Assembly (NCBI GenBank): GCA_963749085.1
Contig: CAVVLG010000002.1
Coordinates: forward strand, 83,178 to 147,177
From: Candidatus Adlerbacteria bacterium
GTDB taxonomy: Bacteria > Patescibacteriota > Minisyncoccia > Phycocordibacterales > SBAW01
Length of the DNA stretch: 64,000 nt
Direction of reading: 5' to 3'
Positions 147 through 52,201 of the stretch are shown piece by piece. The notes under the pieces are model-generated. The model saw nothing but the letters and a program-made list of their open reading frames with translations. It was not told the origin of the DNA and did not search any database. The translations under genes were made by a program, and so were the position numbers. Numbering within the stretch: the stretch's first letter is position 1; each line of letters begins with the position of its first letter.

Positions 147-960
147 GAGAAACAACCCTCGTCAACAAGACCCTGCTGGCGCGGGAGCTAGGGGTATCGC
201 GCCGGAGCCTGTACTACCGCCGCAGAAAGCCTCCGAAGGATTGGCTCCTCAAATGCCGCATCGAGGGGTGCTCCGGGAATATCCTTCCTACGGACATCGT
301 CGCCTGGCGCTCCACCTACGCCTCAACAGGAAACGCATCCGCAGAGTGATGCGCCTCTTCGGCATCAAGCCCTACCGCAGACGCGGGAGGAAACCGCCGA
401 GAATCAAAGGTCCAGCAAGCATCGAGTATCCCAACCTCCTCTTGGGCACCTTTCCCGCATATCCCAACCACATCTGGGTATCCGACTTCACCTACCTGCC
501 ATTCAAAGGAAAGTTTCTCTACCTCGCCACGGTGATGGATCTCTTCACAAGGGAGATCGTCGGTACGAGCGTCCTTACGGCGCATACCACCCAGCTGACG
601 CTCAATGCATTGCTCTCAGCGCTTACGCATCACCCCCGTCCGGCAATCTTCCACAGCGACAACGGCAGAGAGTACACGTCCTACGACTTTCTCTGCATGC
701 TTCTGTCATGCAACATTGCCCTCTCCCGAAGCCAGAAAGGCTGTCCCTGGGAGAACGGGTATCAGGAGTCCTTCTACAGCCATTTCAAGGTTGAGCTGGG
801 TGATCCGGGGCGTTTCAGTACGCTCGGTGAGTTGGTCTATGAAATCTACTCCCTCGTGTACCGCTACAATCACCACCGCATTCACTCGGCACTCAAGATG
901 CCACCGCGCCTCTTTGCATCAAAACACACATCGGTTACACTGCAGGGGATCATCAACTAG
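134..960 (+). pseudogene. IS3-family transposase OrfB (DDE/rve integrase), disrupted. Besides the programmed -1 frameshift at 134-140, it needs a second frame change in the G-run at about 265-268.
   Basis: Frame 2 (137-349) carries LARELGVSRRSLYYRRRKPPKDWLLKCRIEG. Frame 1 (from about 262) carries VLREYPSYGHRRLALHLRLNRKRIRRVMRLFGIK...HSDNGREYTS...KGCPWENGYQESFYSHFK. The join falls at the gagggg tract. Confidence 0.7.
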
Positions 961-5161: not shown

Positions 5162-7189
5162 CTAATGCGGCACCTTCCTAAATGCCGTTTCAATTTCCTT
5201 AAGGCCGACGGGCTTAGTAAGATGAAGAGAAAAACCTGCTTTGAGCGCCTGTGCCTTGTCTTTAGGCTGGCCATACCCCGTGAGCGCAATGAGGGTGGAT
5301 GAAAAGTCTTTTTTTCCTTGCAATACGCGCGCGACTTCATATCCGTCTATATCCGGCAGTCCGATATCCAGGATGATGATCTGCGGGTGGAATTGTTGGG
5401 CCTTATATATCGCTTCGGAACCGTTGAGAGCGAGTTGGACCTCGTGTCCACGAAGCTCCAGAAGCCGTCCGAGTGCTTCAGCCGCCACCTCATTATCGTC
5501 AACAACAAGTATGGAGCGAGTATATTTAACCCGACGCAACGCCCGGCCGACGTGAAGTTTTGGCCGAACGACCGATGGCAGCTGTACATCCGCGGGCAAC
5601 GGCAAACGAACAATAAACTCGGAGCCGAGCCCTTCTCCTGGGCTAGTCGCTTCTATGCTGCCGCCGTGCATTTCGACAAGCTGGCGCGTCAGCGGCAAAC
5701 CAACGCCGAGTCCTTCGGTAGCCAGTTGTCCGCGCTCGACCTGAAAGAAAGGCTCAAAAATGCGCTTGAGCATGTTTTTCGGGATGCCGATACCGTTGTC
5801 GCGCACGCGGATGACCGCCGTAGTGCCCTCCTTCCGGGAGACCAGCTCTATGGACCCGTTGGGCTTGGTGTATTTTGCCGCGTTGTTAAGAAGGTTCACC
5901 AGTATCTGCTCAAGCCGTATGGGATCGGCGTCTAGATACAGCTCATGCTCCGGTTTTACGACGGCGAGAGTATGGCCGCGGCTGCGTATGAGTGTCTGAG
6001 CCGCGCGCACGGAACGGTCGATCAGGGAATCCAAAGAAAGTTTTTCCTTTCGCAGTGTCAGTTTATTCTGCGATATGCGGGAGACATCGAGCAGATCGTC
6101 CAGCATGCTGGTCATGGCGCGGACATGCTCGTCTATCGTCTGGAGGAGCAGAGCCGTGTCCGGCGCATGTGTTTCCTGCAGTCTCAGAAGTTCGGCCGAA
6201 CTCAGTATCGCCGAGAGCGGGTTGCGAAGCTCGTGGGCGAGGATCGCGAGGAAGTTTTTTCTCGCTTCGTCTTCGGATGAGACCTTGTGCAGTGCCTGCT
6301 CCAGCTCCTCGACGTGATGCCGCAGCAATCTCTGAGTGTTTTTGCGCTCCTCGACAACGGCGGCAAAAATAAGGAACACCGCGCTCGTGGTCCCTATGAA
6401 TAATTGGAGGTAGAACAATCCTTCAAAGGCGTACGGGCCGTACCCCGCAAATGCACCCGAAAGAGCTACGACTGCCACAAGAAAGAGCGCAAGCGTCGTG
6501 CCCCGCGGGCCAGTGCGCAGCGACGCCCAGGTCAGCGGGATAAAAAGGTAATAGACGAAATTTGTCTGCGGCGTCCAGAAAACGAAGAGGGAGACGCACA
6601 ACACCGTGAGCGCGACCGCGCCGAGCTCTATATACTGCAGCGGCGTTCTACTAAAAAACGGCTGGGAAATCCATTTGAGGAGAAAAGGCGAAACGATGAG
6701 AATACCGAGCACGTTTCCGATCCACCACTCCATCCCTGTTACTTGTATCGCTGCCGTACTGAGCCCTCCGAGCCGCAGACTTACCACCGCGAGGGCGACA
6801 CTTATCAAGCTGGCGCACAGTGCCACTGCAATAATGCCGATATTATCGCGCAATCGCGCAAAAGCCGGATTGAGACCGACATATCGCCGCAGCACATATG
6901 TGCCAGCGAGACTCTGAAGTGTATTTCCGAGCGCAATGCCAAGCGCCAGGAGGGGCGTTCCACCCGCGGAGAGATTCACCGCAAACGAAGCAAGGATAAC
7001 GGCAGGCCAAAGGCTGTACCCATATAAAAAGAGGGCGGCGAGCGCAATGCCTGCCTCCAGCGAGACTACAGGTACGAACGCAGTAACTGGATGAATGGCA
7101 AGCTCAAGGCGCCCGATGATGAAATAGGCTGCAAAAAGCCCCACATGGGGGCCAAACCGTTTGAGATAGTGGGAAAAAAGCTGAGGCAT
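5162..7189 (-). CDS. hybrid sensor histidine kinase. It has a polytopic membrane sensor domain, HisKA, HATPase_c and a C-terminal receiver domain.
   Basis: H-box FLAILAHELRNPLSAI. N/G boxes (NLLNNAAKYT, VRDNGIGIP, GLGVGLPLTRQ). Receiver ILVVDDNEVAAE...IILDIGLPDIDGYEV...LHLTKPV. The start is set at the ATG one nt after the regulator stop (TGAcATG). The track start at 7231 is a TTG with a 40-nt overlap. Confidence 0.88.
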   Translation of the reverse strand: MPQLFSHYLKRFGPHVGLFAAYFIIGRLELAIHPVTAFVPVVSLEAGIALAALFLYGYSLWPAVILASFAVNLSAGGTPLLALGIALGNTLQSLAGTYVLRRYVGLNPAFARLRDNIGIIAVALCASLISVALAVVSLRLGGLSTAAIQVTGMEWWIGNVLGILIVSPFLLKWISQPFFSRTPLQYIELGAVALTVLCVSLFVFWTPQTNFVYYLFIPLTWASLRTGPRGTTLALFLVAVVALSGAFAGYGPYAFEGLFYLQLFIGTTSAVFLIFAAVVEERKNTQRLLRHHVEELEQALHKVSSEDEARKNFLAILAHELRNPLSAILSSAELLRLQETHAPDTALLLQTIDEHVRAMTSMLDDLLDVSRISQNKLTLRKEKLSLDSLIDRSVRAAQTLIRSRGHTLAVVKPEHELYLDADPIRLEQILVNLLNNAAKYTKPNGSIELVSRKEGTTAVIRVRDNGIGIPKNMLKRIFEPFFQVERGQLATEGLGVGLPLTRQLVEMHGGSIEATSPGEGLGSEFIVRLPLPADVQLPSVVRPKLHVGRALRRVKYTRSILVVDDNEVAAEALGRLLELRGHEVQLALNGSEAIYKAQQFHPQIIILDIGLPDIDGYEVARVLQGKKDFSSTLIALTGYGQPKDKAQALKAGFSLHLTKPVGLKEIETAFRKVPH

Positions 7190-7190
7190 G

Positions 7191-7865
7191 TCATGCCACG
7201 AGGCGGTACCCGACGCCGCGGACTGTCTCAAAATGAGCCGAGTTGCTGTTCTGACCGAGTTTTTTGCGCAGATTCTTCATGTGCACGTCGAGAACGTTGC
7301 TGTACGTCAGAGCGTTAAAGTCCCACACTTTATTGGAGAGCTCTTCGCGCGTGAATACTTCTCCGGGCCGGCGAAGAAAACATTCAAGGAGAGAGTATTC
7401 CTTGAGGGTCAGGGGAATTTCGGTATCCCCGACGGACACGCGGCGGGCGCCGGTATTTATCGTAATATCGCCCACGGCATGTATCACCCTCGGTGCTGCC
7501 TTGGGGCGCCGCGATACGGAGTTAATGCGAGCGATGAGCTCTTCCGAAGAAAATGGTTTTACCACGTAATCGTCGGCACCCGAGTTCAAGAGCTCAACTT
7601 TATATTCCGTTCCGGATTGACCGGTAAGAATAATGACCGGTGTGGTGATATGGTCGGCTCGCAGGAACTTGGTAAGAGTAATTCCGTCGAGGCCCGGCAG
7701 CGTGAGATCAAGAATGATAGCGTCGTATTCCTTGTGATAGAGCGAGATGCGATTTCGCGCTTTCTCGCCATCCGCGAGCCAGTCTACCGCAAAACCCTTC
7801 AGTTCAAGGATTTTCTTGAGGTTTTTTGCAAGGGCCTCCTCGTCCTCTACGATTAAGAGTCTCAT
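7191..7865 (-). CDS. OmpR/PhoB-family response regulator (receiver plus winged-helix DNA-binding domain)
   Basis: MRLLIVEDEEALAKNL...ILDLTLPGLDG...ADDYVVKPFSSEEL. C-terminal TVRGVGYRL. Confidence 0.92.
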   Translation of the reverse strand: MRLLIVEDEEALAKNLKKILELKGFAVDWLADGEKARNRISLYHKEYDAIILDLTLPGLDGITLTKFLRADHITTPVIILTGQSGTEYKVELLNSGADDYVVKPFSSEELIARINSVSRRPKAAPRVIHAVGDITINTGARRVSVGDTEIPLTLKEYSLLECFLRRPGEVFTREELSNKVWDFNALTYSNVLDVHMKNLRKKLGQNSNSAHFETVRGVGYRLVA

Positions 7866-7960: not shown

Positions 7961-9232
7961 ATGCCGAGCAAGGAACAAATCGAGCGATACACCAAGGCCG
8001 CGCGAGAGATGATTAAGGGCTTGAATTTCGAGACGAAACGGGGGATAGTGCTTGATGTCGTAGATAAAATCGTCGCTAACCCGCAACAGCTAGAAGTCTA
8101 TGGATATGTTCGAATAACCAACATGTCGCATTCCGCTCTGAGCATAGGCATCGTGGGACTCCCCAACGTGGGTAAGTCAACCTTATTTCAGGCGCTCACC
8201 AAAAAGAGTGTTCTCATCGCCAATTACCCCTTCGCCACTATCGATCCTTCGGTCGGCGTGGTCGCAGTGCCCGATGAACGGATGGACAAACTGGCCACCT
8301 TTTCCTCGTCAGCTAAGAAGATCCCCGCCGCGATAGAGTTCGTCGATATTGCTGGATTGGTCAAAGGGGCTTCTGAAGGGGAGGGGTTGGGCAATAAATT
8401 CCTCTCGTATATCCGTGAGGTTGATGCCATAGCTCATGTCGTGCGGGTGTTTGATAACGTTAACATCACCCATGTTGAAGCGGAAGTTAATCCGGTACGC
8501 GATATCGAAACTATAAACCTAGAATTGGCGCTTGCTGATTTGGAAACGGCTACCAAGAAGCTCGATTCGCTGGAGCGCGATGTGCGTGCGGGCAAGAAAG
8601 AGGCGATGGTCGAGCAATCGGCAACCATGAAAGCAAAAAAAGTATTGGAGGCGGGAAGTTTGGCCGCCACGGCCCCATATACTCCTGAAGAGAGGAATGC
8701 GCTAAAGGGTCTACATTTGCTCACGCTTAAACCGATGCTCTATGTGCTCAATCGCGAAGCCGACGGACACAATCTCGACGAGCTTAAGGACGATCGCTGG
8801 CAGTCGCTCATGGAGTTTTTTGAAAAAAATAACGCCGCACACGTTATCGTAGACGCGCACATTGAGAATGAGCTCCGCGAACTTCAGGGAGAAGATAAAA
8901 CATCGTTCCGGCAGGAATACGGTATTTTCGACGACGGCATTAATGCGCTTATTAAAGCCGGATACGCGCTGTTGGGCCTCATTAGTTTCTTTACGACCGG
9001 CGAAGACGAGACTCGCGCTTGGACTATTCCCCAGGGCTCGGCGGCACCCGAGGCGGGCGCCACCATACACACCGATTTTTTTGATAAATTCATACGCGCT
9101 GAGGTCATTAACTGGCGGATACTGCTTAATGCAGGCTCCTATGCAATTGCGCGCGAAAAAGGTCTCATCCGTACTGAGGGAAAGGAGTACGTAGTCAAAG
9201 ACGGCGACGTTATAGAATTTCTTCACTCATAA
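7961..9232 (+). CDS. ychF: ribosome-binding ATPase YchF (Obg-family GTPase) with an in-frame 54-aa N-terminal extension. A canonical start would be 8123.
   Basis: G1 motif [18 protein letters not shown], the DxxG motif and the TGS C-terminus. The ATG at 7961 has a strong Shine-Dalgarno sequence AGGAG 6 nt upstream. The internal [12 protein letters not shown] start at 8123 has none. Confidence 0.85.
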
Positions 9233-9255: not shown

Positions 9256-9465
9256 TCAATCGGCCATTTTTATTCTTCGGTGTTTTGTGCTTTTAAGCCA
9301 TTGTCTATGGCGCAAAGCCGCGGTGCGCACTTTTGCGTGGGAGTGGTTGAGATAATAGCACCAGCCCTCGTCAGTGATGATCGCATTGGTGCCCCAAACG
9401 TCGACCTTCAAGATCGAAAGCATCAACTCGATCTTGCGGATGTTTCTGAGCAGAGGCGATTTCAT
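9256..9465 (-). CDS. small hypothetical protein (69 aa, basic C-terminus), translationally coupled to lysC
   Basis: Its ATG overlaps the lysC TGA stop (ATGA). Third-codon GC is clearly higher than in the antisense ORF 9280-9480. Confidence 0.4.
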   Translation of the reverse strand: MKSPLLRNIRKIELMLSILKVDVWGTNAIITDEGWCYYLNHSHAKVRTAALRHRQWLKSTKHRRIKMAD

Positions 9466-10760
9466 GTGAATGCCTCATAAATTGCACGCACCGCTCGAGC
9501 ATAGTCGCTGTTGGTCACCCCGACGATGATGCTTATCTCACTGGCACCCTGATCCATCATGCGTACATTTATATTCTGTTCGGCCAGGGCCTGAGCAAGC
9601 CTCGCGAGTACTCCGGGCTTATGCGCCATTGCGTGACCGACCGTACAAATGAGCGAAAGATCATCGGTAACGCTCAGTCGATCCGGGTTACATTCCCGCT
9701 TGATGTCTTTGATTAGTTGGTCGAGTTTTCCAGCAACCGTGTGGCTGTCGATGACGACGCTTACGCTATCAATGCTTCCCGGTAAATGTTCGAACCCCAC
9801 CCCGTTATCTTTGAGAACGCCAAGCAGCTTCCATACATAGCCGACCTCATTGTTCATGTTGGCCTTTTCAAGGGCCATGACGGTGAAGTGTTTTCGACCT
9901 GCAATGCCGGTTATAGAACCGGGCGCTCGCGCGGGTGCCTTATCGTCGGCGACTATCATCGTGCCAGCCCCGTGGTAGTCGTTCGTATTGCGTATACAGA
10001 TAGGAATACCGGCTTCCCGGACAGGGAAAACCGCTTCGTCATGCAATACGCGCGCGCCGGCATAAGCAAGCTCCCGCATCTCGCGGTAGGTCATAGCTTC
10101 TATCTTACGGGGATTCTCCACAATAGTGGGATCGGCCATGAGCACCCCCGATACATCAGTCCAGTTCTCATACATCGATCCACCAAGAGCCGCCGCCGCA
10201 ATCGCTCCAGTGATGTCAGAACCGCCACGGCTGAAGTTTCTTATCGAGCCGTCCGGCATTTCGCCATAGAATCCCGGGATGACCATGCCCCGTTTTGTAA
10301 ATGGAAGGAACCGCTCAAAGCGTGCAACGGTCTCCGACATATCGAGCGAGCCGTCAATCTTAAAGCAGATGAGACAGGTTGCATCCACGAACTGGTAGTC
10401 GAGAGCCTCGGCGAGCATCGTAGCCATGTAGTACTCACCACGGCTCACGAGCATGTCGCCGGTCATTCGGTAGAGGTCCGAAGTATCGGTATACAATCCG
10501 AGACCTGCTGCGAGGTCAGCGAAACGTTCTCGCACAAGTGCTACCTGGCCCGTGTAACTCGGCATGCCCCCGTAGAGATAGCTCCGGTAATCGATGAGAA
10601 TATCCGTCACTTTATTGTCGAAGGCATGGCGTTTTCCCGGTGCAGAAACGACCACTACTTTGCGGTGGGGATGATTCCTTACGATTCCGACGACTTTCTT
10701 TACTTGGGCAGCATCCGCGAGGGAAGTGCCGCCGAACTTTGCGATGACAAGATCACCCAT
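9462..10760 (-). CDS. lysC: aspartate kinase with C-terminal ACT domains
   Basis: N-terminus MGDLVIAKFGGTSLADAAQVKKV...VVVVSAPG. ACT repeats at the C-terminus. The ATG at 10760 is preceded by GGAAGG. The track start at 10796 is a GTG. Confidence 0.9.
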   Translation of the reverse strand: MGDLVIAKFGGTSLADAAQVKKVVGIVRNHPHRKVVVVSAPGKRHAFDNKVTDILIDYRSYLYGGMPSYTGQVALVRERFADLAAGLGLYTDTSDLYRMTGDMLVSRGEYYMATMLAEALDYQFVDATCLICFKIDGSLDMSETVARFERFLPFTKRGMVIPGFYGEMPDGSIRNFSRGGSDITGAIAAAALGGSMYENWTDVSGVLMADPTIVENPRKIEAMTYREMRELAYAGARVLHDEAVFPVREAGIPICIRNTNDYHGAGTMIVADDKAPARAPGSITGIAGRKHFTVMALEKANMNNEVGYVWKLLGVLKDNGVGFEHLPGSIDSVSVVIDSHTVAGKLDQLIKDIKRECNPDRLSVTDDLSLICTVGHAMAHKPGVLARLAQALAEQNINVRMMDQGASEISIIVGVTNSDYARAVRAIYEAFT

Positions 10761-10843
10761 GTGCACCTTCCTGTGATAGGACAAGTCTCGGCGCACTGTA
10801 CCAAACTTTAACAGAAGTTCAATTGTGGTATGATTTACGTGTC

Positions 10844-11794
10844 ATGGAAAAACCGAAAACGATGCCGAAAGATTTCTTTCTGTGGGCCGGAGCGATGCTT
10901 TCGCTATATGTGAGCGTCTTTTCATTTTTAGGCCTTATGTTCGATTTCGTCAATTACGCATTTCCCGATCCACTTGCGTACTATCCCGCTGATCCGTATT
11001 CAGGCAGCGTCAGCTACCAAATGGCCTCCCTCATCGTGCTTCTGCCTCTCTTTCTGGTGCTGATGTATTTTATCGATCGGGACATCAAGCGGGATCCGAC
11101 GCGCAGGGACATTTGGGTGAGGCGCTGGGCGCTGGTATTGACGATTTTCGTCGCGGGAGTGACCGTCGCCGTGGATCTTATTGTGCTTCTCATGAATTTC
11201 TTCAACGGGGGGCTTACGACGCCGTTTCTCCTCGACATTGTGATGGTATTTTTGGTTGCGGCGGGAGGTCTCATGCATTTCAGCGCAGATCTGCGCGATT
11301 ACTGGCAAAAAAATCCGCAGCTTCTCCATCGCGTGGGATGGGGAGTGGGGATACTTGCCGTACTCACCATTCTCTCCGGCTTTCTTATCATAGGCACTCC
11401 TTGGCAGGCGCGGTTGTATCAGTTTGATGCGGATAAAATAAGCGACTTGCAAAACATCCAATCGCAGGTCGTCTCCTACTGGCAGCAAAATGACAGACTT
11501 CCCTCAACGCTGAGCGATCTCAACGACTCGCTTTCGGGCTATTCGCTTCCGACTGACCCGCAAACTGGTCAGTCCTACACCTATCAGATAGAAGGCAAGT
11601 CATCGTTTCAATTGTGTGCCACGTTCAATACCGACAGCGGCGGCCTCAATATCATAAATCCTGGAGGGCCTATGATCCCGGCCGGCCCAGCCGGTGCCGG
11701 TGACATCGCCAATAATAACTGGCAGCATGGCTCGGGGCCGACCTGCTTCTTGCGCACCATTGACCCCGCGCTCTATCCTCCGGTTACGAAATAG
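10844..11794 (+). CDS. polytopic membrane protein (about 4 TM, DUF5671-like) fused to a C-terminal type IV pilin / GspG pseudopilin-like domain. It has no prepilin cleavage motif.
   Basis: C-terminal QARLYQFDADKISDLQNIQSQVVSYWQQNDRLPSTLSDL...LPTDPQTGQSYTYQ matches the pseudopilin pattern. There is no G/FTLIE motif. The ATG at 10844 is chosen over the TTG at 10823. Confidence 0.6.
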   Translation: MEKPKTMPKDFFLWAGAMLSLYVSVFSFLGLMFDFVNYAFPDPLAYYPADPYSGSVSYQMASLIVLLPLFLVLMYFIDRDIKRDPTRRDIWVRRWALVLTIFVAGVTVAVDLIVLLMNFFNGGLTTPFLLDIVMVFLVAAGGLMHFSADLRDYWQKNPQLLHRVGWGVGILAVLTILSGFLIIGTPWQARLYQFDADKISDLQNIQSQVVSYWQQNDRLPSTLSDLNDSLSGYSLPTDPQTGQSYTYQIEGKSSFQLCATFNTDSGGLNIINPGGPMIPAGPAGAGDIANNNWQHGSGPTCFLRTIDPALYPPVTK

Positions 11795-11827: not shown

Positions 11828-14248
11828 ATGTCCGCGTACGACCATAAGAAGATTGAAGCCAAGTGGCAAAAAATTTGGCAGGAAACCGACGCATACAAGA
11901 CTGATACTGATACGAGCAAGCCCAAATACTACGTGCTCGACATGTTTCCATATGCTTCGGGCGCCGGCCTCCATGTGGGGCATCCCAAGGGATATATAGC
12001 CTCCGATATCCACGCGCGCAAACGGCGTATGGAAAGATATCGTGTGCTTCATCCCATGGGTTGGGACGCGTTTGGTCTGCCCGCCGAAAATTACGCAATA
12101 AAAACAGGGACATCGCCGCAGAAAACAACCGACGAATCAATAGCGACGTTCAAAAAACAAATTTCAATTCTCGGCCTCTCCTATGACTGGGCGCGGGAAT
12201 TGGCGACAGATAAACCCGAATATTACAAATGGACGCAGTGGCTTTTCATCAAATTTTTTGAGAAAGGATTGGCGTATAAAAAGAAAGCACTAGTCAATTG
12301 GGATCCGGTGGATCAGACCGTACTCGCTAATGAGCAAGTACTTCCCGACGGCACGGCCGAGCGCTCGGGTGCCAAGGTGGAGAAAAAAGAACTTGAACAG
12401 TGGTTTTTCAAGATTACCGAGTACGCCGATGAACTTATCGGAGATTTGGATAAGGTGGATTGGCCCGCATCAACAAAAATAAACCAGCGCAACTGGATAG
12501 GGAGAAGCGAGGGACTTGTTTTTCACTCACCGGTCAAAGATACCGACATCGTCATAGAAACGTTCTCGGCTCATTTTGAAGCATATTGCGCGGACACCTT
12601 TATTGTCATTGCCCCGGATCATCCGCTCTTGCCGGTGTTGCTCGAAGGAATTTCAAATAAAGAAGAAATTTTATTGGGAGCCAAGGATATGGTTCGCAAG
12701 CGCACTGAACAAGGTAGGGAGGAAGTGAAGGAAGTGGAAGGAATTTTTACTGAACGCTATACGGTGGATCCGATTGGAAACGGTGAGCTTCCTATCTGGA
12801 TCGCAAATTATGCCCTGGCGGATTACGGAACGGGGATAGTGAAATGTTCCGCTCACGATGAGCGCGATTTCGCCTTTGCAAAAAAATACAATATTCCTCT
12901 AAAGGCAGTGCTTGTTCCTGAGGAAAAGGAATCCCGCACTCAAGTGGAGCGCCTCGAAGTGTGTTACAGCGACATGAAAAACGGTATATTGCTTGAACCT
13001 CCAGCATTTGCCGGCAAGCGAGCGAGAGAAGTCCGAAATGAGATAATCGAATTTGTAGAAAAAGAAGGTCTCGCTAAACGTCGTACTACCTACCGCCTCA
13101 GAGATTGGCTTCTATCGCGACAGCGGTATTGGGGAGCGCCTATCCCGATAGTCTATGACTCTGAGGGAGTGCCCCATATCATTCCCGAAGAACATTTGCC
13201 GTGGCTTCTTCCCACCGATGTGGAGTACCTGCCTAAAGGAACCTCGCCGCTTGGTTCATCCAAGGAGTTGTTCGCGCGTACGGAAAAAATATTCGGCAAA
13301 GGATGGAAGCCCGAAATAGACACCATGGATACATTCGTATGCTCCTCGTGGTATTTTTTGCGTTTCGCCGATCCTCGCGACGATAAAGTATTCGCCTCCA
13401 AAGAAGCGCTGCAGAAGTGGCTTCCCGTCGATCTATACGTGGGCGGAGCGGAACACACAGTGCTCCATCTTATGTATGCTCGTTTCTTTACTAAAGTGCT
13501 GCGAGACATGGGGTGCCTCTCCTTTGGCGAGCCGTTTTTGAAACTGCGGCATCAGGGCCTTATTTTGGCCGAGGACGGGCGCAAAATGAGCAAACGCTGG
13601 GACAACGTCATCAATCCCGACGATATGGTTGGGCGCTTCGGGGCGGATTCCCTGCGCGTCTACGAGATGTTTATGGGCCCCTTTGAGCAGCAAATAGCCT
13701 GGAGCACCGACGGGGTGGTGGGCGTGCGCCGCTTTATCGAGCGGGTGTGGGCGATACAGGGCAAGGTAACGGGGTCGATGGTGGGGCAGGAGACTGCCGT
13801 TTTGCTTCAACAAACAATAGAGAAAGTGTCGCACGACATCGAGCTGTTCAAATTCAACACCGCTGTCTCTGCGCTCATGATTTTTTCAAATCACCTCGCT
13901 ACTTTGAAGGAGATCCCAGTATCGGCCTATGGTGTACTTCTGCAGTTGCTTCATCCCTTTGCACCGCATGTAACGGCGGAAATAGCATCGCTCGGGGGCT
14001 ATGAAAAACTCCTGCACACATGGCCTCAGTCAGAAGCACCCTCGGTCCATCGCACGAGCAAAGTGTCAGTTCAAATAAATGGCAAAGTGAGAGGGGCTCT
14101 GGTTCTTCCTCAGGGCGTCTCAGAAGTCGAGGCACTGCAGCTCGCGCGACAGGAGCCCACGGTGGCAAAATGGCTCTTGCAAGGCAAGGAAAAAAGAGCC
14201 ATTTATGTCCCTGGCAGGGCCATAAATTTCATCGTTGACACTATTTGA
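11828..14248 (+). CDS. leuS: leucine--tRNA ligase
   Basis: PYASGAGLHVGHPKGY (HIGH motif). KMSKRWDNV (KMSKS motif). Editing (CP1) domain present. 806 aa. Confidence 0.95.
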   Translation: MSAYDHKKIEAKWQKIWQETDAYKTDTDTSKPKYYVLDMFPYASGAGLHVGHPKGYIASDIHARKRRMERYRVLHPMGWDAFGLPAENYAIKTGTSPQKTTDESIATFKKQISILGLSYDWARELATDKPEYYKWTQWLFIKFFEKGLAYKKKALVNWDPVDQTVLANEQVLPDGTAERSGAKVEKKELEQWFFKITEYADELIGDLDKVDWPASTKINQRNWIGRSEGLVFHSPVKDTDIVIETFSAHFEAYCADTFIVIAPDHPLLPVLLEGISNKEEILLGAKDMVRKRTEQGREEVKEVEGIFTERYTVDPIGNGELPIWIANYALADYGTGIVKCSAHDERDFAFAKKYNIPLKAVLVPEEKESRTQVERLEVCYSDMKNGILLEPPAFAGKRAREVRNEIIEFVEKEGLAKRRTTYRLRDWLLSRQRYWGAPIPIVYDSEGVPHIIPEEHLPWLLPTDVEYLPKGTSPLGSSKELFARTEKIFGKGWKPEIDTMDTFVCSSWYFLRFADPRDDKVFASKEALQKWLPVDLYVGGAEHTVLHLMYARFFTKVLRDMGCLSFGEPFLKLRHQGLILAEDGRKMSKRWDNVINPDDMVGRFGADSLRVYEMFMGPFEQQIAWSTDGVVGVRRFIERVWAIQGKVTGSMVGQETAVLLQQTIEKVSHDIELFKFNTAVSALMIFSNHLATLKEIPVSAYGVLLQLLHPFAPHVTAEIASLGGYEKLLHTWPQSEAPSVHRTSKVSVQINGKVRGALVLPQGVSEVEALQLARQEPTVAKWLLQGKEKRAIYVPGRAINFIVDTI

Positions 14249-14298
14249 CCCATCGTCTACAGTGTGATATATTAAGCAGCATTAAAGAGCTGAAGTAT

Positions 14299-15342
14299 AT
14301 GGCACCCACGAGCGATAAAACCGGTTTCAAACCTAAAGCGATAGTACGCAAACTGCTCGCGAGTCTGCCGGAGCGCTCGCGCATAGTGCTGGAAGCCCGT
14401 TTTGGCCTCGGCACCAACCCCGAGCGCGTGACTTTGGAGTCTATAGGGAAGCGCTACAATATTACGCGCGAGCGGGTGCGACAAATAGAAAATCACGCCC
14501 TCACACAACTCAAAAAATCCCCTGCGTTTATCGACGCCGACGCGGCTTTTCATGAGCTTGAGCGTATCGTCGACTCTCTCGGCGGCATCGTCTGCGAGAG
14601 CGACCTTCTCAATTTCATTACCAAAGACAAGTCGATGCAAAACTATATTTATTTTCTCCTCGTGCTCGGCAACCCGTTCAAGTTCCGCAAAGAAGACGAT
14701 GAAGTAGAGCGCTGCTGGTACGTGGATCCGGAGCTTGCCAAGAAAGTGGAGCAGGCGCTGCGCAGCCTCTACGAGAGCCTCTCTGACGAAGACCTCATAC
14801 CGGAGGGAGAGATGATTGACCGCTTCCTTAAAGAGATGCAGGACATCAACGACAAGCACCGCAACGCCGAAGTTGCCAAGCGCTGGCTTTCTATTTCAAA
14901 GAAAATAGGCAAGAACCCGCTCGGCGAATGGGGCCATGCGTCTTCTCCCAACGTTAAAACCAAAGGGGTGCGCGATTACGCCTACTTGGCGGTCAAAAAA
15001 CACGGTAGCCCGTTGCACTTCAAAGAAGTTGCGGCTCTTATCGAAAAAATGTTCAACCGTGCGGCACATGTGGCGACCACGCACAACGAGCTCATCAAAG
15101 ATGATCGTTTTGTGTTGGTTGGTCGCGGGATGTACGCACTTAAAGAGTGGGGCTACGCCTCCGGGGTTGTGCGCGACGTCATCCGTAACATTTTGCGCGA
15201 CAACGGACCGCTCACGAAGGAGCAAATAATTGAGAAGGTGCTCAAAGAGCGCCATGTCAAACCTGGCACTGTGGTCGTCAACCTCCAAAATCAGAAATAT
15301 TTCAAGCGCGGCAAGGACGGCAAGTTCGTGTTGGTGAAATAA
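14299..15342 (+). CDS. putative transcription regulator with an N-terminal sigma-70 region-4-like HTH and a C-terminal HARE-HTH (RpoE-delta-like) domain
   Basis: RSRIVLEARFGLG...ERVTLESIGKRYNITRERVRQIENHALTQLKK. C-terminal HGSPLHFKEVAALIEKMF...DDRFVLVGRGMYALKEWGY. ATG at 14299. The track start at 14245 is a TTG overlapping the leuS stop. Confidence 0.6.
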   Translation: MAPTSDKTGFKPKAIVRKLLASLPERSRIVLEARFGLGTNPERVTLESIGKRYNITRERVRQIENHALTQLKKSPAFIDADAAFHELERIVDSLGGIVCESDLLNFITKDKSMQNYIYFLLVLGNPFKFRKEDDEVERCWYVDPELAKKVEQALRSLYESLSDEDLIPEGEMIDRFLKEMQDINDKHRNAEVAKRWLSISKKIGKNPLGEWGHASSPNVKTKGVRDYAYLAVKKHGSPLHFKEVAALIEKMFNRAAHVATTHNELIKDDRFVLVGRGMYALKEWGYASGVVRDVIRNILRDNGPLTKEQIIEKVLKERHVKPGTVVVNLQNQKYFKRGKDGKFVLVK

Positions 15343-15367
15343 ATCCCGCTCAGGCGGGATTTTTCAT
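15343..15367 (+). terminator. rho-independent terminator (atcccgc-tcag-gcgggat plus ttttt)
   Basis: Hairpin plus T-run immediately after the 15342 stop. Confidence 0.65.
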
Positions 15368-15384
15368 ATGCTAAAATAGTTTTC

Positions 15385-16704
15385 ATGGGTAAGTTCTATA
15401 AAAAATTCAGATTCTATCTCAATCTCTATGCCTTGGAAGGTCCATATATAGGTCTCATATTTCTTTACTTTATTATAGTGTGGGTACCATTCCACTGGGA
15501 TGTGTGGCTTCTCATCTGGGGGTTTTTAGTTGCCTCATTTCCATTCGTGTTGCCGTTGTTACTTGGTGTCATTTTTCTTAAAGCTTATCTGGAGTACAAG
15601 CGCAACCGGTATTACTTTGCCCAAGAATACTGCGTGCTGGAAGTCAAACTGTCCGAGGATATAACCCAGGGGCCCTACGCCATGGAGCTAGTGCTGCGTG
15701 CACTCTACGATACCGGTGAGGTGGATACACCCGCACATGAATGGCGCGGCAACACCAAACCATGGTTTTCGCTGGAGTTAGTTTCAACCGAAGGGGCAGT
15801 GCGTTTCTATCTCTGGATGCGCGTTAAATTCAAAGAGAGAATCAAAGCCCAATTGTATGCACACTATCCGACGGTGCAGGTCGTTGAGGTATCTGATTAC
15901 ACACTTGAGGTTCCGTGGGACAGCGGAGAATATGACCTGTGGGGTATCGAGCAAAATCTGCAGAAGCCCGACCCATATCCGCTCGCGACCTACATTGAGC
16001 AAGGGCTCACCAAGCCGGATCTCAAAGAGGAATTCAAATCAGATCCCATGGTATCGCTCATAGAATTTTTTGGCAGCATGGGCAAAGGAGAGCACGCGTG
16101 GCTTCAGATAATTATTCGTGGGCACACTAAGTGCTATTGGTCAGTCGAAAAATATCACGAACACCTCAAACTCGAAGATTGGACGGAACGCGAAGTGCTT
16201 GAACTAGGGAAAAAATTCGCTGATCAAGACGATCGGCCTAACTATTCGCGCTTGCCGGAGGGTGACAAGGAAGCCGTTAAAGCCATGCAGAACAAACTTA
16301 ACAAGCAGATTTTTGATGTCGGCATTCGCGCCATCTACATCGCTCGCAAGGAGGATTGGAAGGGAGGCATCCGCCAAAACGGGTTTCCGACCATGTTCCG
16401 CTCTTTTGAGCACGGTTCGGAGGGACGAGGGCTCAATGGGCTAAAACCCATTTTCTACATTGGTCCATTTAACGTAAAGTGGCACGATTTTTTAGGCATT
16501 CGTCGCAGAATGCTGAAGAAAAAATTCTATAACGGCTACGTATTGCGACAATATTTCTACGAACCCTACAAGGATCTTCACATAGCGCTTAATTCCGAAG
16601 AGATAGCGAGCATCTACCATTTCCCGGGCAAGGTAGCCCATACGCCGACCTTGCAGCGCATGCCCTCGAGACGCTCAGAAGCTCCCGCCAATCTGCCGGT
16701 CTAG
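15385..16704 (+). CDS. hypothetical membrane-anchored protein (two N-terminal TM helices, about 370-aa soluble domain), no recognisable family
   Basis: ATG 8 nt downstream of a TAAAAT hexamer. There is a long ORF with balanced composition. Confidence 0.6.
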   Translation: MGKFYKKFRFYLNLYALEGPYIGLIFLYFIIVWVPFHWDVWLLIWGFLVASFPFVLPLLLGVIFLKAYLEYKRNRYYFAQEYCVLEVKLSEDITQGPYAMELVLRALYDTGEVDTPAHEWRGNTKPWFSLELVSTEGAVRFYLWMRVKFKERIKAQLYAHYPTVQVVEVSDYTLEVPWDSGEYDLWGIEQNLQKPDPYPLATYIEQGLTKPDLKEEFKSDPMVSLIEFFGSMGKGEHAWLQIIIRGHTKCYWSVEKYHEHLKLEDWTEREVLELGKKFADQDDRPNYSRLPEGDKEAVKAMQNKLNKQIFDVGIRAIYIARKEDWKGGIRQNGFPTMFRSFEHGSEGRGLNGLKPIFYIGPFNVKWHDFLGIRRRMLKKKFYNGYVLRQYFYEPYKDLHIALNSEEIASIYHFPGKVAHTPTLQRMPSRRSEAPANLPV

Positions 16705-16803
16705 TACCACTCAATGGATCCCAAAGAACCCCTTCACCATAGGATTCGGCATCATATTGTGCACACGGCAGGCGTCTGTGACGCGTGGTGTAGGGAAGCG
16801 CGT

Positions 16804-17757
16804 ATGTATGACAGGATTTTGCCCGCCTCTTTTTTGGTCGGGGTGCTGTTGTTTCTTGTATATTTTGTCACGCTCGCAGCCCCTCTTAATTTCCCCAGTG
16901 CCTCGCTGGTGCATATTTCAGAAGGCGCAAATATCACCGAAGTGGCTCAGCTGTTGAAGCAAAAAAATATCATACGCTCGGCGCTCCTCTTCGAAGGTCT
17001 TGAGCGATTGCGTGGCGGCGGAGCCATAGTTATTGCTGGGGAATATTTTTTCCCCGGACCGGAGACAGTGATTACCGTGGCTAATCGCATTGCGTCAGGC
17101 GACCACGAGCTCACGCCGGTACGCGTGACGGTGCCCGAAGGCGTGACAGCAGTCCAGATATCGCATCTCCTCGCCCAGGACGTGCCGGATTTTGACAGTA
17201 CGGGGTTTCTCGCCCTGGCGCAGCCTAAGGAAGGGACCCTCTTTCCCGACACGTACTTTTTTCTGCCGGGGGAAGATGTCGACCTGGTCCTCACCACGTT
17301 CGAGAATGATTTCAACGAGCATATTGATGCCCCTACAGTTGCCGAAGCGATAACGACTTTTGGGAAACCGCAAAGCGAGGTCATTACCATGGCGTCTATC
17401 CTTGAGAAGGAAGCGCCCGATACGAAAGACAGGGAGATAATCTCCGGCATCTTGTGGAAGAGAATCTCCATTGGTATGGCGCTCCAGGTTGATTCAGCCT
17501 TTGTCTATATTTTGGGGGTTGATTCGCTGCAGCTAACCACAGCCGATTTGGCAACTTCCTCGCCGTACAATACCTACACCCATAAAGGGCTGCCGCCCGG
17601 ACCCATTTCTAATCCCTCCCTCGATTCTATCCTCGCAGCAGTGCAGCCGATACAAACAGACTACCTTTATTACCTATCGGATCTGCAAGGAAACATTCAC
17701 TACTGTGCGACGTATGCATGTCAACTCGTAAATCAAAGAAGATATTTAGGGGATTAA
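16804..17757 (+). CDS. mltG: endolytic murein transglycosylase MltG (YceG family)
   Basis: N-terminal TM, then YNTYTHKGLPPGPISNP signature. Start taken at the internal ATG (MYDRILPASFLVG), which follows AGGGAAG. Confidence 0.8.
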   Translation: MYDRILPASFLVGVLLFLVYFVTLAAPLNFPSASLVHISEGANITEVAQLLKQKNIIRSALLFEGLERLRGGGAIVIAGEYFFPGPETVITVANRIASGDHELTPVRVTVPEGVTAVQISHLLAQDVPDFDSTGFLALAQPKEGTLFPDTYFFLPGEDVDLVLTTFENDFNEHIDAPTVAEAITTFGKPQSEVITMASILEKEAPDTKDREIISGILWKRISIGMALQVDSAFVYILGVDSLQLTTADLATSSPYNTYTHKGLPPGPISNPSLDSILAAVQPIQTDYLYYLSDLQGNIHYCATYACQLVNQRRYLGD

Positions 17758-17759
17758 AG

Positions 17760-17810
17760 AAAAAAACACCCTCTACCATCGGACCGGCAGAAGGTGTGTG
17801 GGTGTTTCAG
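17760..17810 (-). terminator. rho-independent terminator for the minus-strand transporter gene (stem aacaccc/gggtgtt, then T7)
   Basis: On the minus strand the sequence reads aaacaccc...gggtgttttttt. Confidence 0.6.
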
Positions 17811-18280
17811 TGAAGGGACGATGCTTCGTGGATTTTACTTGTGGCGAGGATAATCCCCCCTGAAACTACGAGTCCACAGCCGAGCAACGCGCGCCACGGG
17901 TTCATCCTCATTTCGAGGAAGACGATTTCCCATACCGATGCCATGATCGGGGAAGAGGCAATAAGTCCAAGTACCAATGCGATGGGTGCCCGCGGTATGG
18001 CCAAAGCGCTGTTCATCAAGATGAAGGAACAGCTCGTGATAAGTCCGATGAGCAGGCATAGGCCGATGGTGGATGAGCCCCATCCAAATGTCAGCGGTAT
18101 AGAACGCACGCTCCACACGAAACTCATGAGTACAGACATCATTCCATAGAACAGAAGCAGAGTCGTTGGAGAAGCGCCCATTTTGACCATTGCCGTCTTC
18201 GACAGCACGGGCACAATGCTGTAGCACAGCGCCGCAAGAAGTGACAGAGCCACTGGGGAGGCGAGAAGTTGTTTGAGCAT
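17807..18280 (-). CDS. single-domain EamA/DMT-superfamily small membrane transporter
   Basis: About 5 TM helices, EamA-like. Start at the internal ATG (MLKQLLASPVAL), preceded by AAAGGAAAG. The track start is a TTG. Confidence 0.55.
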   Translation of the reverse strand: MLKQLLASPVALSLLAALCYSIVPVLSKTAMVKMGASPTTLLLFYGMMSVLMSFVWSVRSIPLTFGWGSSTIGLCLLIGLITSCSFILMNSALAIPRAPIALVLGLIASSPIMASVWEIVFLEMRMNPWRALLGCGLVVSGGIILATSKIHEASSLH

Positions 18281-18363
18281 CGGGCTTTCCTTTGGTGGGA
18301 ACGAAGGCTGATACACGGTGTAACATTTTTGTTTATCTTCGTCAAATAACCTATAGTGTGAGG

Positions 18364-19425
18364 GTGTCTCTGAAGAAAAAATCAAACGGAAAAGTCTTTG
18401 TGGGGCTTTCGGGTGGGGTGGACTCCGCGGTCTCTGCCGCGTTGCTTCAAAAAGAAGGCTACGAGGTGACCGGTGTCTTTATTCGCATCGCGCTCCCCGG
18501 CTATCCGTGCAGCGCGGGCGAGGATAAAATTGAAGCGCAACGCGCCGCAGCCCACTTGCGCATCCCGTTTATCGAGGTCGATCTATCGAAGGAATATGAG
18601 CAAGAAGTGTTTCGCACGACGCTCGATGAGTTTTCACGCGGTACAACACCCAACCCAGATACACTGTGCAACCAGAAAATAAAATTTGGTCATTTTTGGG
18701 AGTTCGCAAAATCCCGCGGAGCCGAGTATATAGCCACGGGCCATTACGCTCAGATAAAGAATGGGGAGCTTTTTGAGGGAGTGGATGAAGAAAAAGACCA
18801 ATCGTATTTTTTGTGGATGGTACCCGAGGAAGTCCTTCGTTACACACTGTTTCCGGTCGGACATCTGAAAAAATCGGAGGTGCGTACGCGTGCGGAAACA
18901 CTCGGTTTGCCGAATGCTACGCGAAAAGATTCCCAGGGCCTCTGCTTTCTCGGCGACACCTCAATTCAGAATATGCTGAGGAAAGAACTCTCCCCCCAGC
19001 CAGGTCAAGCGTTTGATGAGGAGGATGTGGTCGTCGGCTCGCACAATGGCGCCATGCTCTACACTCTCGGGCAGCGACATGGCTTCGCGCTTTTTTCTCA
19101 TACGCCGACGACGCCTCCGCATTTTGTCGTGGCAAAAGATGCGGCCCACAATAGCATTACCGTTTCAACATCGCGCGTCCCGCGTCACGCCAAAAAAACA
19201 GAAATCATCCTTTCCGATACAAATTGGATAGGGAAGGTGGTATCGGGGATCTATGCCGCTCGCTTTCGCTATCGTGCCGCACTCATACCGGCTCATGTGG
19301 CTGTTGAGACCAACACCGTCGTGCTTGAGGAGGCGCAGTACGTGCCCGAGGGGCAATCGCTCGTGCTCTACCGCGGCAAGCGCTGCCTCGGCGGCGGCAT
19401 CATTGAGAGAGCTTTGCTGCTATAA
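18364..19425 (+). CDS. mnmA: tRNA-specific 2-thiouridylase MnmA
   Basis: PP-loop KVFVGLSGGVDSAVSAALL plus C-terminal domains. A GTG start gives the N-terminus MSLKKKSNGKVFVGLSGGVDS. The track start at 18292 is a TTG. Confidence 0.85.
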   Translation: MSLKKKSNGKVFVGLSGGVDSAVSAALLQKEGYEVTGVFIRIALPGYPCSAGEDKIEAQRAAAHLRIPFIEVDLSKEYEQEVFRTTLDEFSRGTTPNPDTLCNQKIKFGHFWEFAKSRGAEYIATGHYAQIKNGELFEGVDEEKDQSYFLWMVPEEVLRYTLFPVGHLKKSEVRTRAETLGLPNATRKDSQGLCFLGDTSIQNMLRKELSPQPGQAFDEEDVVVGSHNGAMLYTLGQRHGFALFSHTPTTPPHFVVAKDAAHNSITVSTSRVPRHAKKTEIILSDTNWIGKVVSGIYAARFRYRAALIPAHVAVETNTVVLEEAQYVPEGQSLVLYRGKRCLGGGIIERALLL

Positions 19426-49993: not shown

Positions 49994-51039
49994 ACGCCTT
50001 CGACGTACTGCGCATATTCCTCCCCGCAACCGTCGCCTTTCTTTTCGGCATTGCGCTGACGCCTTTTTTGACCCACTTTCTCTACCAGCGGCAGATGTGG
50101 AAGCAAAAGGGGGGCAAAATAGGGCTCGACGGAAAGCCGGCCGAAGTATTCAATCAGCTCCACGAACACAAAGAAGTCGGCACGCCGCGCTTCGGCGGCG
50201 TCATCGTGTGGGGCAGCGTCGTCTTTACCGCCGCGCTCTTTCAGATACTGTATATATTCTTTCCCAGTTCCTTCAATAATTTGGCGTTCATAAGCCGCAG
50301 CCAGACGTGGGTTCCTCTCGCGGCGCTTCTCGTCGGTGCTCTGGTCGGACTCATGGACGATTTTTACGAAGTGCAGGGCAGGAGGGGACTGCCGTTACGC
50401 GTGCGGCTGAGCATCGTGGCGATAGTGGGACTTGTGTGCGCCTACTGGTTTTACGCCAAGCTCGGCGTTTCATCCATTTCCTCCTTCGGTGCGCCGATAG
50501 AGCTTGGCGTGTGGTTCATACCGTTCTTTATCCTCGTGACGCTCTTCATCTACGCCGGCGGTGTGATAGACGGCCTCGACGGCCTTGCAGGCGGCACCTT
50601 TTCCTCCGTGTTCGCCGCTTACGCCTGCATCGCGTACTTCCAGGACCAGATGAATCTCGCGGCTTTGTGCGCGGCCATAGCCGGAGGGCTCCTCGCCTTT
50701 TTGTGGTTTAACATTCCTCCCGCGCGCTTCTATCTCTCCGAAACCGGCACCATGGGTTTAACGCTTACCCTCGTCGTCGTAGCGTTTTTGACCGATAAAC
50801 TGGGGGGCGGCAGGGGAGTCATTGTGCTCCCTATTATTGCGCTGCCCTTGGTCGCGACTGTGCTTTCCAATATCGTGCAAATGCTGAGCAAAAAAATATG
50901 GGGGAGAAAACTGTTCCGCATCGCGCCGCTGCACCATCACTTTGAAGCCCTTGGCTGGCCCTCCTACAAGGTAGTGATGCGCTACTGGATAGTAGGACTT
51001 ATTGCGGCCATTATCGGCATAAGCATCGCGTTGCTGTGA
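49990..51039 (+). CDS. mraY: phospho-N-acetylmuramoyl-pentapeptide transferase
   Basis: Polytopic. GLMDDF, GGVIDGLDGLA motifs. Confidence 0.92.
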   Translation: MNAFDVLRIFLPATVAFLFGIALTPFLTHFLYQRQMWKQKGGKIGLDGKPAEVFNQLHEHKEVGTPRFGGVIVWGSVVFTAALFQILYIFFPSSFNNLAFISRSQTWVPLAALLVGALVGLMDDFYEVQGRRGLPLRVRLSIVAIVGLVCAYWFYAKLGVSSISSFGAPIELGVWFIPFFILVTLFIYAGGVIDGLDGLAGGTFSSVFAAYACIAYFQDQMNLAALCAAIAGGLLAFLWFNIPPARFYLSETGTMGLTLTLVVVAFLTDKLGGGRGVIVLPIIALPLVATVLSNIVQMLSKKIWGRKLFRIAPLHHHFEALGWPSYKVVMRYWIVGLIAAIIGISIALL

Positions 51040-52133: not shown

Positions 52134-52201
52134 AAAAACGCCCCCAGAATATCCCCACGTCCTCCTTTGACAATAGCCAAGCAGACCACATACTTCACCA
52201 T

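Follow-up and report, generated by a model that had tools for sequence, protein, structure and literature searches.

Can the type IV pilin fold be kept in a protein that is very unlikely ever to enter a filament? This question is raised by the gene at 10844-11794 in a stretch of 64,000 nucleotides (the window) from a Candidatus Adlerbacteria bacterium. The gene encodes a membrane protein of 316 amino acids (aa), in which an earlier note, made from the sequence, had seen a pilin-like domain joined to several transmembrane (TM) helices in place of a cleavable leader. Judged by profile comparison, the C-terminal domain is a homologue of type IV prepilins found in its own bacterial group. It has lost the residues that define the prepilin signal, and it is either fused to or encoded next to a four-TM module of the DUF5671 family. 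We favor, with a probability of roughly 55%, the interpretation that the two modules form one membrane unit, in which the outer face of the membrane permanently carries an exapted pilin fold that does not polymerise and offers a conserved surface to a partner or ligand.

Results and Discussion

The C-terminal domain and type IV prepilins

A profile of the last 152 aa of the family (A2) was compared by hhalign with 40 aligned prepilins of Paceibacteria (A3), all of which carry PF07963 and some of which also carry PF08334. Among the 120 prepilins listed for this group, PF07963 is present in every one and PF08334 (T2SSG) in 8. The two profiles aligned with a probability of 97.15% (E 4.7e-11) over 92 columns, and removal of both TM helices gave 97.3% (E 1.8e-11) with 39% identity over 75 columns. 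A profile of 139 diverse representatives reached 97.9% (E 4.6e-13) with the TM helix excluded, and the second subfamily alone, from which the target had been left out, reached 97.7% (E 2e-12). The broadest alignment came from a profile (A4) of 62 sequences from both subfamilies, with identities of 27%-55% (Table 1). As controls, 40 column shuffles of the pilin alignment peaked at a probability of 0.8% (E 0.07), and the DUF5671 half scored 0.1% against pilins, so hydrophobicity is not the cause of the match. With plain HMMER, a prepilin hidden Markov model (HMM) found a single match among the 471 six-frame open reading frames (ORFs) of the window, namely this ORF (aa 170-264, 38.7 bits).

The agreement also extends to the level of motifs. 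Like the type IV pilins and GspG-type proteins of Paceibacteria, the family has a hydrophobic helix oriented N-in/C-out after a basic cytoplasmic segment, an alpha1-C helix of the form R..D..R/K..DLQ.IQ, an LP turn, a DP.TG..Y.Y loop, and a Y/F-x-L-x-A strand. A pair of cysteines and a terminal DP..Y..P line up with the prepilins only in a low-confidence global alignment. The GspG/type IV pilin pattern proposed in the earlier note is therefore borne out, and the C-terminal region, whose failure to match pilin profiles would have told against the note, did match the profile of the lineage's prepilins.

It is also conceivable that the resemblance arose by chance or convergence, as a TM helix followed by a long helix and a small sheet occurs in PilO/GspM-type proteins as well. 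Searches of general libraries speak for this explanation. Pfam and NCBIfam returned DUF5671 alone for the whole protein and no pilin family, and neither PF08334 nor any other pilin match was obtained in Pfam for 34 family C-termini, even at E<=10. A search of the PDB with the single sequence gave only spurious matches to designed WD40 repeats, and PDB profile searches with A2 and A4 gave no match. Foldseek comparison of the C-terminal model with the PDB produced weak pilin matches (4noa, 5g2f, 2ope, and 6bbk; E 0.7-3.7, TM-score 0.27-0.45), none of them significant, although pilins and pseudopilins were the only coherent group among these matches. NCBIfam also gave a weak match to GspM, which speaks for the same explanation; it had E 0.14, scored 11.8 bits (cut-off 60), and covered just the TM helix and the next helix, and the protein is not assigned to the PilO/PilN/GspM-type proteins. 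On the other side, three profile sets, one of them built without the target, each gave 97%-98% with E-values of about 1e-11 to 1e-13, far beyond the shuffle controls (<=0.8%), and both the motif-level agreement and the plain HMMER match point the same way. We consider a fortuitous resemblance to be largely refuted.

The prepilin profile itself matches solved pilins, and its globular part matches N-terminally truncated EpsG/GspG chains (3gn9, 3fu1, and 4lw9), with 5wda also linked. The predicted order of secondary structure, a long helix and then a three-stranded antiparallel sheet, is that of solved pilins (these EpsG/GspG structures, PilE 4noa, PilX 2ope, PilA 6bbk, and TTHA1222 5g2f). A direct match to them is not significant by either structure or sequence.

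Loss of the class III signal

In the alignment of A4 with A3, the pilin Gly-1 corresponds to R163 in the target and to I, L, V, or W elsewhere in the family. Phe+1 corresponds to position 164, where the target has no Phe, and Glu5 corresponds to V168 (V, S, A, or I in the family). The basic residue that precedes the pilin cleavage site aligns with position 162, which is K or R in 94 of 139 representatives, and the loop between TM4 and TM5 (aa 148-164) aligns by hhalign with the prepilin leader. TM5 has a mean hydropathy of 2.25, follows this basic loop, and runs N-in/C-out like the pilin alpha1-N helix, a segment of about 21 hydrophobic residues. Its mean content of Asp and Glu is 0.0 in the 139 representatives, and G179, F180, and G184 are conserved. 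The prepilin motif G[FM][TS]L[IV]E is absent from every frame of the window. These observations agree with two statements of the earlier note, that the protein has no G/FTLIE peptidase site and that its last TM helix takes the place of the N-terminal helix of a pilin.

The class III leader is short and hydrophilic and ends in a conserved Gly (-1), a defining feature that is described as "absolutely critical" for cleavage, and Glu5 mutants are unable to form homopolymeric pili (PMC4471445). Because both residues are lost, it is very unlikely that a prepilin peptidase cleaves the protein or that it polymerises in the normal way, as the earlier note had also supposed. The protein is homologous to type IV pilins and GspG-type pseudopilins, and the loss of these two defining residues places it outside their class.

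An in-frame prepilin site was not revealed by a corrected start or assembly. In alignment with the target, all 33 full-length homologues begin with M[DE]KPKTTPKDFFLW, which fixes ATG 10844 as the start; the longest possible reading of the ORF would open at TTG 10823. The identical protein is recorded on a public contig of 518 kb (P0001).

The DUF5671 module and membrane topology

The N-terminal half is a clear member of DUF5671 (PF18920), at 74 bits against a cut-off of 28.4, and every homologue retrieved carries this domain; the assignment, which had been put forward for checking, is confirmed. The Pfam model represents the four-TM part only, and neither the Pfam match nor the names given by sequence sources include the pilin-like partner or its split or fused arrangement. 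An AlphaFold2 model built with 34 homologues (mean predicted local distance difference test score, pLDDT, 78.9; predicted template modelling score 0.65) contains five helices of membrane length (Table 1). This model and hydropathy assign the first four helices (TM1-4) to DUF5671 and identify the fifth, TM5, as the pilin-like one. The earlier note had counted three TM helices ahead of the pilin-like helix, four in all; the actual number is four plus one. An Asp in TM3 (D111) is invariant or nearly so across the family alignments.

The distribution of positive charge defines the orientation. In 139 representatives (50% identity), the mean number of Lys and Arg residues is 2.3 at the N-terminus, 5.6 in loop 2, and 3.8 in loop 4, all cytoplasmic, and 0.4 in loop 1 and 0.0 in loop 3, both outside. 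The positive-inside pattern and the modeled helices together describe a protein that crosses the membrane five times, from an internal N-terminus to an external C-terminus. In a few members (P0264, aa 323-405; P0283, aa 440-521), the pilin-like head is followed by a Gmad2 Ig-like domain at the C-terminus. The Gmad2 Ig-like domain is taken to be extracytoplasmic, and its addition at this end fits a C-terminus outside the cell.

No structural counterpart of the four-TM module was found in the PDB, and Foldseek with the full model returned nothing meaningful. An internal duplication of the module was rejected (hhalign 1.6%), as was a catalytic H145/D149 motif in DUF5671, which is lost in more distant representatives.

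A conserved extracytoplasmic head

In the model, TM5 ends at a hinge of the form G-(S/T)-P, with no variation at G184 or P186 among 62 diverse sequences. The head that follows consists of an alpha1-C-like helix (186-216), the LP turn, the DPQTG..Y.Y loop, and strands 246-249, 254-261, and 298-305. Its two cysteines lie on neighboring predicted strands, and a disulphide between Cys258 and Cys301 is probable. The patch W293-x-H295-x-x-G298-x-x-C301-F302 is nearly invariant, even between subfamilies. The mean frequency of the most common residue is 0.59 in helix 186-216 and 0.55-0.57 in the sheet, and the head is conserved at least as well as the membrane part of the protein. Columns of the family alignment A2 have a mean identity of 58%, compared with 33% for those of the full-length prepilin alignment A3. 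A conserved head with an invariant patch points to a fixed extracytoplasmic site for binding or scaffolding rather than to the variable surface of a fiber.

Fused and split forms

A tblastn search of plasmids gave a match on pOB3b_02 of Methylosinus trichosporium OB3b (E 6e-15, query aa 3-265) that falls into two pieces. Here, the genes for WP_099831986.1 (208 aa, "DUF5671 domain-containing protein") and WP_157926112.1 (137 aa, "hypothetical protein") have a 4-bp overlap, and the second protein has one TM helix followed by ARFKKLDEKRLRDLQ...LPETL...YEY...YELCAHF...GRYCF. A search with the concatenated OB3b pair retrieved both unfused DUF5671 proteins of 204-263 aa and fused proteins of 301-406 aa, one of the latter labeled Paceibacterota. 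At all six unfused DUF5671 loci examined (the Methylosinus plasmid and five metagenomic contigs), a pilin-like ORF of 137-145 aa adjoins the DUF5671 gene. Five of these ORFs overlap the gene by 4 bp, and the remaining one begins a single base downstream of the DUF5671 stop codon. When these six ORFs were searched alone, the HMM of the family head matched all of them at E 1e-21 to 1e-29, and the prepilin HMM did so at E 1e-7 to 1e-13. Each has its own, presumably uncleavable signal-anchor, and none has Gly-1, Phe+1, or Glu5, so the pilin-like module is without a class III signal even when it is unfused. The earlier note had described the membrane domain as fused in place of a cleavable leader. 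The fusion and the absence of a leader stand, although at six of six unfused loci the pilin-like half is found as a separate ORF that has no class III signal either. The pattern of modules that are either fused or coupled is the strongest evidence that they act together.

Split pairs occur twice in the order nusA-infB-pair-rbfA-truB-rpsO-pnp, in the neighborhood of a TetR regulator and a hydrolase, and on the plasmid. The neighbors of one fused form are acyl-CoA, hydantoinase, and 2-oxoacid dehydrogenase genes; they suggest a host with a rich metabolism that lies outside the Candidate Phyla Radiation (CPR).

Two-gene versions in other lineages might be taken as a sign that the fusion in the window is an artefact, produced from neighboring genes by a sequencing or assembly error. 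The same single ORF of about 315 aa is found, however, in all 150 listed representatives at 50% identity, at the 80 genome loci fetched, and among 120 close homologues. As the architecture recurs across independent assemblies, an error of assembly or gene calling is refuted as its source.

The split forms bear on cryptic processing as well, in which the DUF5671 part, or the short N-terminus of the split form, would serve as a leader, and a cut before TM5 would free a polymerisable pilin. Consistent with this, K or R at position 162 (94/139) lies just before TM5, position 165 is A, G, or S in 87 of 139 representatives and is followed by W, I, or Y, and some split forms begin with a short polar stretch, for example MKARPSLFAG|FIAV. 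Processing of this kind is nonetheless highly improbable. The position of Gly-1 is occupied by I, L, V, W, or R, where Gly is critical for cleavage (PMC4471445), and Glu5 is missing. One split form begins with MKIFVAIV and is essentially leaderless, and the strong conservation of the DUF5671 part would be unexpected in a disposable leader.

Distribution and genomic context

An exhaustive HMM search found 5436 representatives (50% identity) at E<=1e-3 and 992 at E<=1e-30. The 150 matches listed are full-length members that span the whole or most of the profile, most of them 295-340 aa long, and nothing beyond the family was found among them. A scan with one genome per species, in which two peptide patterns were used, found the family in at least 312 genomes, which is a lower bound. 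Close relatives are labeled Paceibacterota, Minisyncoccia, Kaiserbacteria, Adlerbacteria, and similar, and a sequence-cluster look-up added little taxonomic information. A second, longer fused form of 367-377 aa with about 55 additional aa in an N-terminal cytoplasmic segment occurs in Paceibacterota (L088, 8001-9134; L090, 8001-9104), where it adjoins PGI, a 2-hydroxyacid dehydrogenase, and a DUF5667+Kazal protein. The window has no copy of it. In L090, an upstream gene of 440 aa and unknown product overlaps the longer form by 4 bp.

The order ychF, family gene, leuS was observed in five checked contigs and the 80 fetched loci. leuS lies directly downstream in 72 of 72 related loci, and ychF lies upstream on the same strand in 65 of 67. 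The family is a large, syntenic core gene of Paceibacteria. In the window, the 33-nt spacer to leuS has no terminator-like site, and one relative shows a 4-bp overlap between the two genes, which makes co-transcription with leuS likely.

A link with type IV pilus (T4P) genes was not apparent. Across 88 related loci (+/-4-10 kb each, about 750 kb in total), a prepilin motif was present in just two, L078 and L083, and no other T4P gene was found in any of the 88. No T4P family was found by Pfam among the 21 window proteins scanned and no prepilin by motif scan or prepilin HMM, and an HMM search of the window ORFs gave neither a second DUF5671 paralogue nor a canonical pilin. There was no match in PADLOC or PHROGs, and hence no sign of a defence or phage origin; tblastn of a phage collection gave no match.

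These data need to be weighed against the idea of a T4P-associated adaptor, in which the head and the alpha1-N-like helix dock on pilins, on the pilus base, or on the assembly platform, and the protein acts as an anchor, primer, stop, or organiser of the pilin pool. The alpha1-C residues R190, D195, K/R198, D201-L202, and Q206, which show the highest conservation in prepilins of the lineage (pilin motif AR.KARDA.RISD..Q), are kept, and canonical prepilins are carried by relatives. There is also precedent for such contacts, as PilA touches the TM domain of PilS within the membrane, and the archaeal FlaF and FlaG are uncleaved, membrane-anchored homologues of filament subunits that serve the archaellum. 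FlaF/FlaG are the nearest functional analogy known to us, namely a subunit homologue with an uncleaved N-terminal anchor that does not polymerise and is a fixed component of the envelope; they differ in having the archaellin beta-sandwich fold, in being encoded in the archaellum operon, and in having no polytopic partner domain. Against an adaptor stand the absence of linkage to pilin or T4P genes and the position of the gene, which is fixed between ychF and leuS or found in nusA-infB-rbfA operons, metabolic neighborhoods, and a plasmid. Moreover, Glu5 is missing, and the G-S/T-P hinge interrupts the continuous alpha1 helix that serves for packing in a filament. We regard an adaptor role as a possibility worth keeping, if a doubtful one.

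A more specific proposal is that the pilin homologue, held by DUF5671 covalently or, when split, stoichiometrically, serves as a fixed subunit at the base of a type IV filament or as the one that nucleates it, and so forms a membrane-anchored pilus terminus. We know of no such component in any T4P, type II secretion (T2SS), or Com system. Pili of Paceibacteria are thought to mediate host contact and DNA uptake. Although we judge this proposal unlikely, if true, Paceibacteria would possess a core gene for an anchored pilus terminus.

Proposed model: a pilin fold held at the membrane

In our preferred interpretation, the non-polymerising two-module unit, TM5 would be the former alpha1-N helix of a pilin and the basic loop ahead of it the former leader, and TM5 and the DUF5671 bundle together would tether the fold. 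Replacement of Gly-1 and Glu5 by hydrophobic residues would prevent both the peptidase cut and extraction into a filament, and the Gly-Ser/Thr-Pro hinge would keep the pilin-type head just above the membrane. The head would consist of the alpha1-C helix and a small antiparallel sheet, probably braced by Cys258-Cys301, and its invariant patch (W293, H295, G298, C301, and F302) may form the fixed binding or scaffolding site. The two modules would be obligate partners, fused in Paceibacteria and encoded by adjacent, mostly overlapping genes in other bacteria. The family differs from the prepilins of Paceibacteria along the same lines: it has no Gly-ending leader, Phe+1, or Glu5, its helix is interrupted by the hinge, a four-TM module stands ahead of it or beside it as a partner, its head is far more conserved, it has no linkage to T4P genes, and it is not recognised by Pfam pilin models.

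Several points weigh against this interpretation. The Pfam T2SSG and N_methyl models, NCBIfam, and PDB profile searches do not detect the pilin-like domain, and the link to solved pilins is consequently transitive, by way of lineage-specific prepilins. Canonical prepilins are encoded elsewhere in relatives (L078 and L083), so partner machinery is available to them, and gene order is generally conserved in small CPR genomes, so housekeeping neighbors do not rule out a T4P-related role. The proposed lack of processing and polymerisation is read from sequence alone, and the conserved surface would be a binding or scaffolding site for a ligand or partner that is itself putative.

Table 1. Features of the DUF5671/pilin-like gene and its conserved neighbors (nucleotide positions in the window)
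Feature	Position	Strand	Evidence
Gene for DUF5671 + pilin-like membrane protein, 316 aa	10844..11794	+	ATG to TAG (stop 11792-11794)
DUF5671 (PF18920) match, aa 11-139	10874..11260	+	Pfam E 1.3e-20, 74.1 bits vs cut-off 28.4
TM1, aa 12-39, inside to outside	10877..10960	+	AlphaFold2 helix 8-39; mean hydropathy 1.65
TM2, aa 57-75, then basic cytoplasmic loop aa 76-95 (DRDIKRDPTRRDIWVRRW)	11012..11068	+	AlphaFold2 helix 55-83
TM3, aa 96-119, with intramembrane D111	11129..11200	+	AlphaFold2 helix 86-120
TM4, aa 126-147, then basic cytoplasmic loop aa 148-164	11219..11284	+	AlphaFold2 helix 126-150
Stretch aligned with prepilins, aa 160-264	11321..11635	+	A4 vs A3, hhalign 98.06%, E 1.3e-13, 104 columns
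TM5, aa 165-184 (GWGVGILAVLTILSGFLIIG), counterpart of pilin alpha1-N	11336..11395	+	AlphaFold2 helix 158-183; hhalign to pilin mature residues ~9-22
Hinge G184-T185-P186, TM5 to ectodomain helix	11393..11401	+	AlphaFold2 helix break at 184-185
Predicted extracytoplasmic pilin-like domain, aa 185-316	11396..11791	+	AlphaFold2 pLDDT 87-94 over aa 190-260
Cys258 (LCATF strand)	11615..11617	+	139/139 representatives; invariant in both subfamilies
Variable low-confidence loop of the ectodomain, aa 268-290	11645..11713	+	pLDDT <50; lowest segment conservation, 0.32
Cys301 (G..CF.R strand)	11744..11746	+	139/139 representatives; on neighboring predicted strand 298-305
ychF, conserved upstream neighbor	7961..9232	+	Pfam
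leuS, 806-aa LeuS, 33 nt downstream	11828..14248	+	Pfam

Neighboring genes and other features of the window

The G+C content of the window is about 52%, and its housekeeping genes are those usual in small genomes. On the minus strand, at 9462-10796, a gene for an aspartate kinase (AA_kinase + ACT) separates ychF from the DUF5671 gene. It is found within +/-4 kb in only 1 of 80 related loci and hence looks like a lineage-specific insertion into the fixed order. The ychF ORF encodes 423 aa compared with 366-369 aa in relatives, and its GTPase domain begins at aa 62; the true start is probably an internal Met near aa 55, at about nt 8123.

The leuS genes of some relatives contain an additional inserted domain, namely NUDIX in an 1133-aa LeuS (L002, 11006-14407) and an alpha/beta-hydrolase (Abhydrolase/Ser_hydrolase) in a 969-aa LeuS (L003, 2037-4946). 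The LeuS of the window has neither insertion. The genes that usually follow leuS encode Sigma70_r4, DUF8128, YceG, and MnmA. In the window, the corresponding order, with a DUF8128-type membrane protein and YceG (MltG), occupies 14245-19425 (plus strand), and the block from leuS to MnmA is kept in three of four neighborhoods examined (the L001, L003, and P0041 contigs, and not L002). The 439-aa protein at 15385-16704 has no Pfam match at E<=1e-5, while its positional counterparts match DUF8128.

Elsewhere in the window, a 689-aa hybrid histidine kinase with MASE1 as its membrane sensor domain (MASE1-HisKA-HATPase-REC) overlaps an OmpR-type response regulator at 5162-7865 (minus strand), and the pair is a full two-component system in a small genome. 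An rve-type integrase/transposase ORF at 241-960 (plus strand) is probably part of an insertion sequence. A 909-aa protein at 54642-57371 (minus strand) gives weak TraG-D_C and DUF87/HerA matches and resembles coupling-protein-type ATPases. It is flanked by cell-wall genes on the opposite strand and may be related to a conjugation-like type IV secretion system, which has reportedly been seen in Patescibacteria. Finally, the AT skew swings from -0.226 to +0.194 between adjacent 2-kb bins (50001-54000) that hold mraY/ftsW-like membrane genes and the gene after them; this is probably a codon-composition effect of TM-rich genes.

Significance

The fused or paired arrangement is real, widespread, and unannotated. 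Pfam and sequence sources name these proteins only "DUF5671" or "hypothetical". Our literature search found no paper that mentions DUF5671, and the literature on pilins of Patescibacteria and on polytopic pilin fusions yielded nothing about a family that combines DUF5671 with a pilin-like domain. The annotation can be corrected, as the C-terminal 130 aa of the fused proteins and the ORF of about 140 aa that follows unfused DUF5671 genes are one pilin-related family. The split pair of OB3b is carried by an isolated strain with a complete plasmid record, and its processing, localisation, partners, and phenotype may be directly testable there. If our interpretation is correct, the fold of type IV pilins has here left the filament cycle and become part of a polytopic membrane unit. 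The family is large and ranks with the better conserved envelope proteins in Paceibacteria, whose surface biology is almost uncharacterised.

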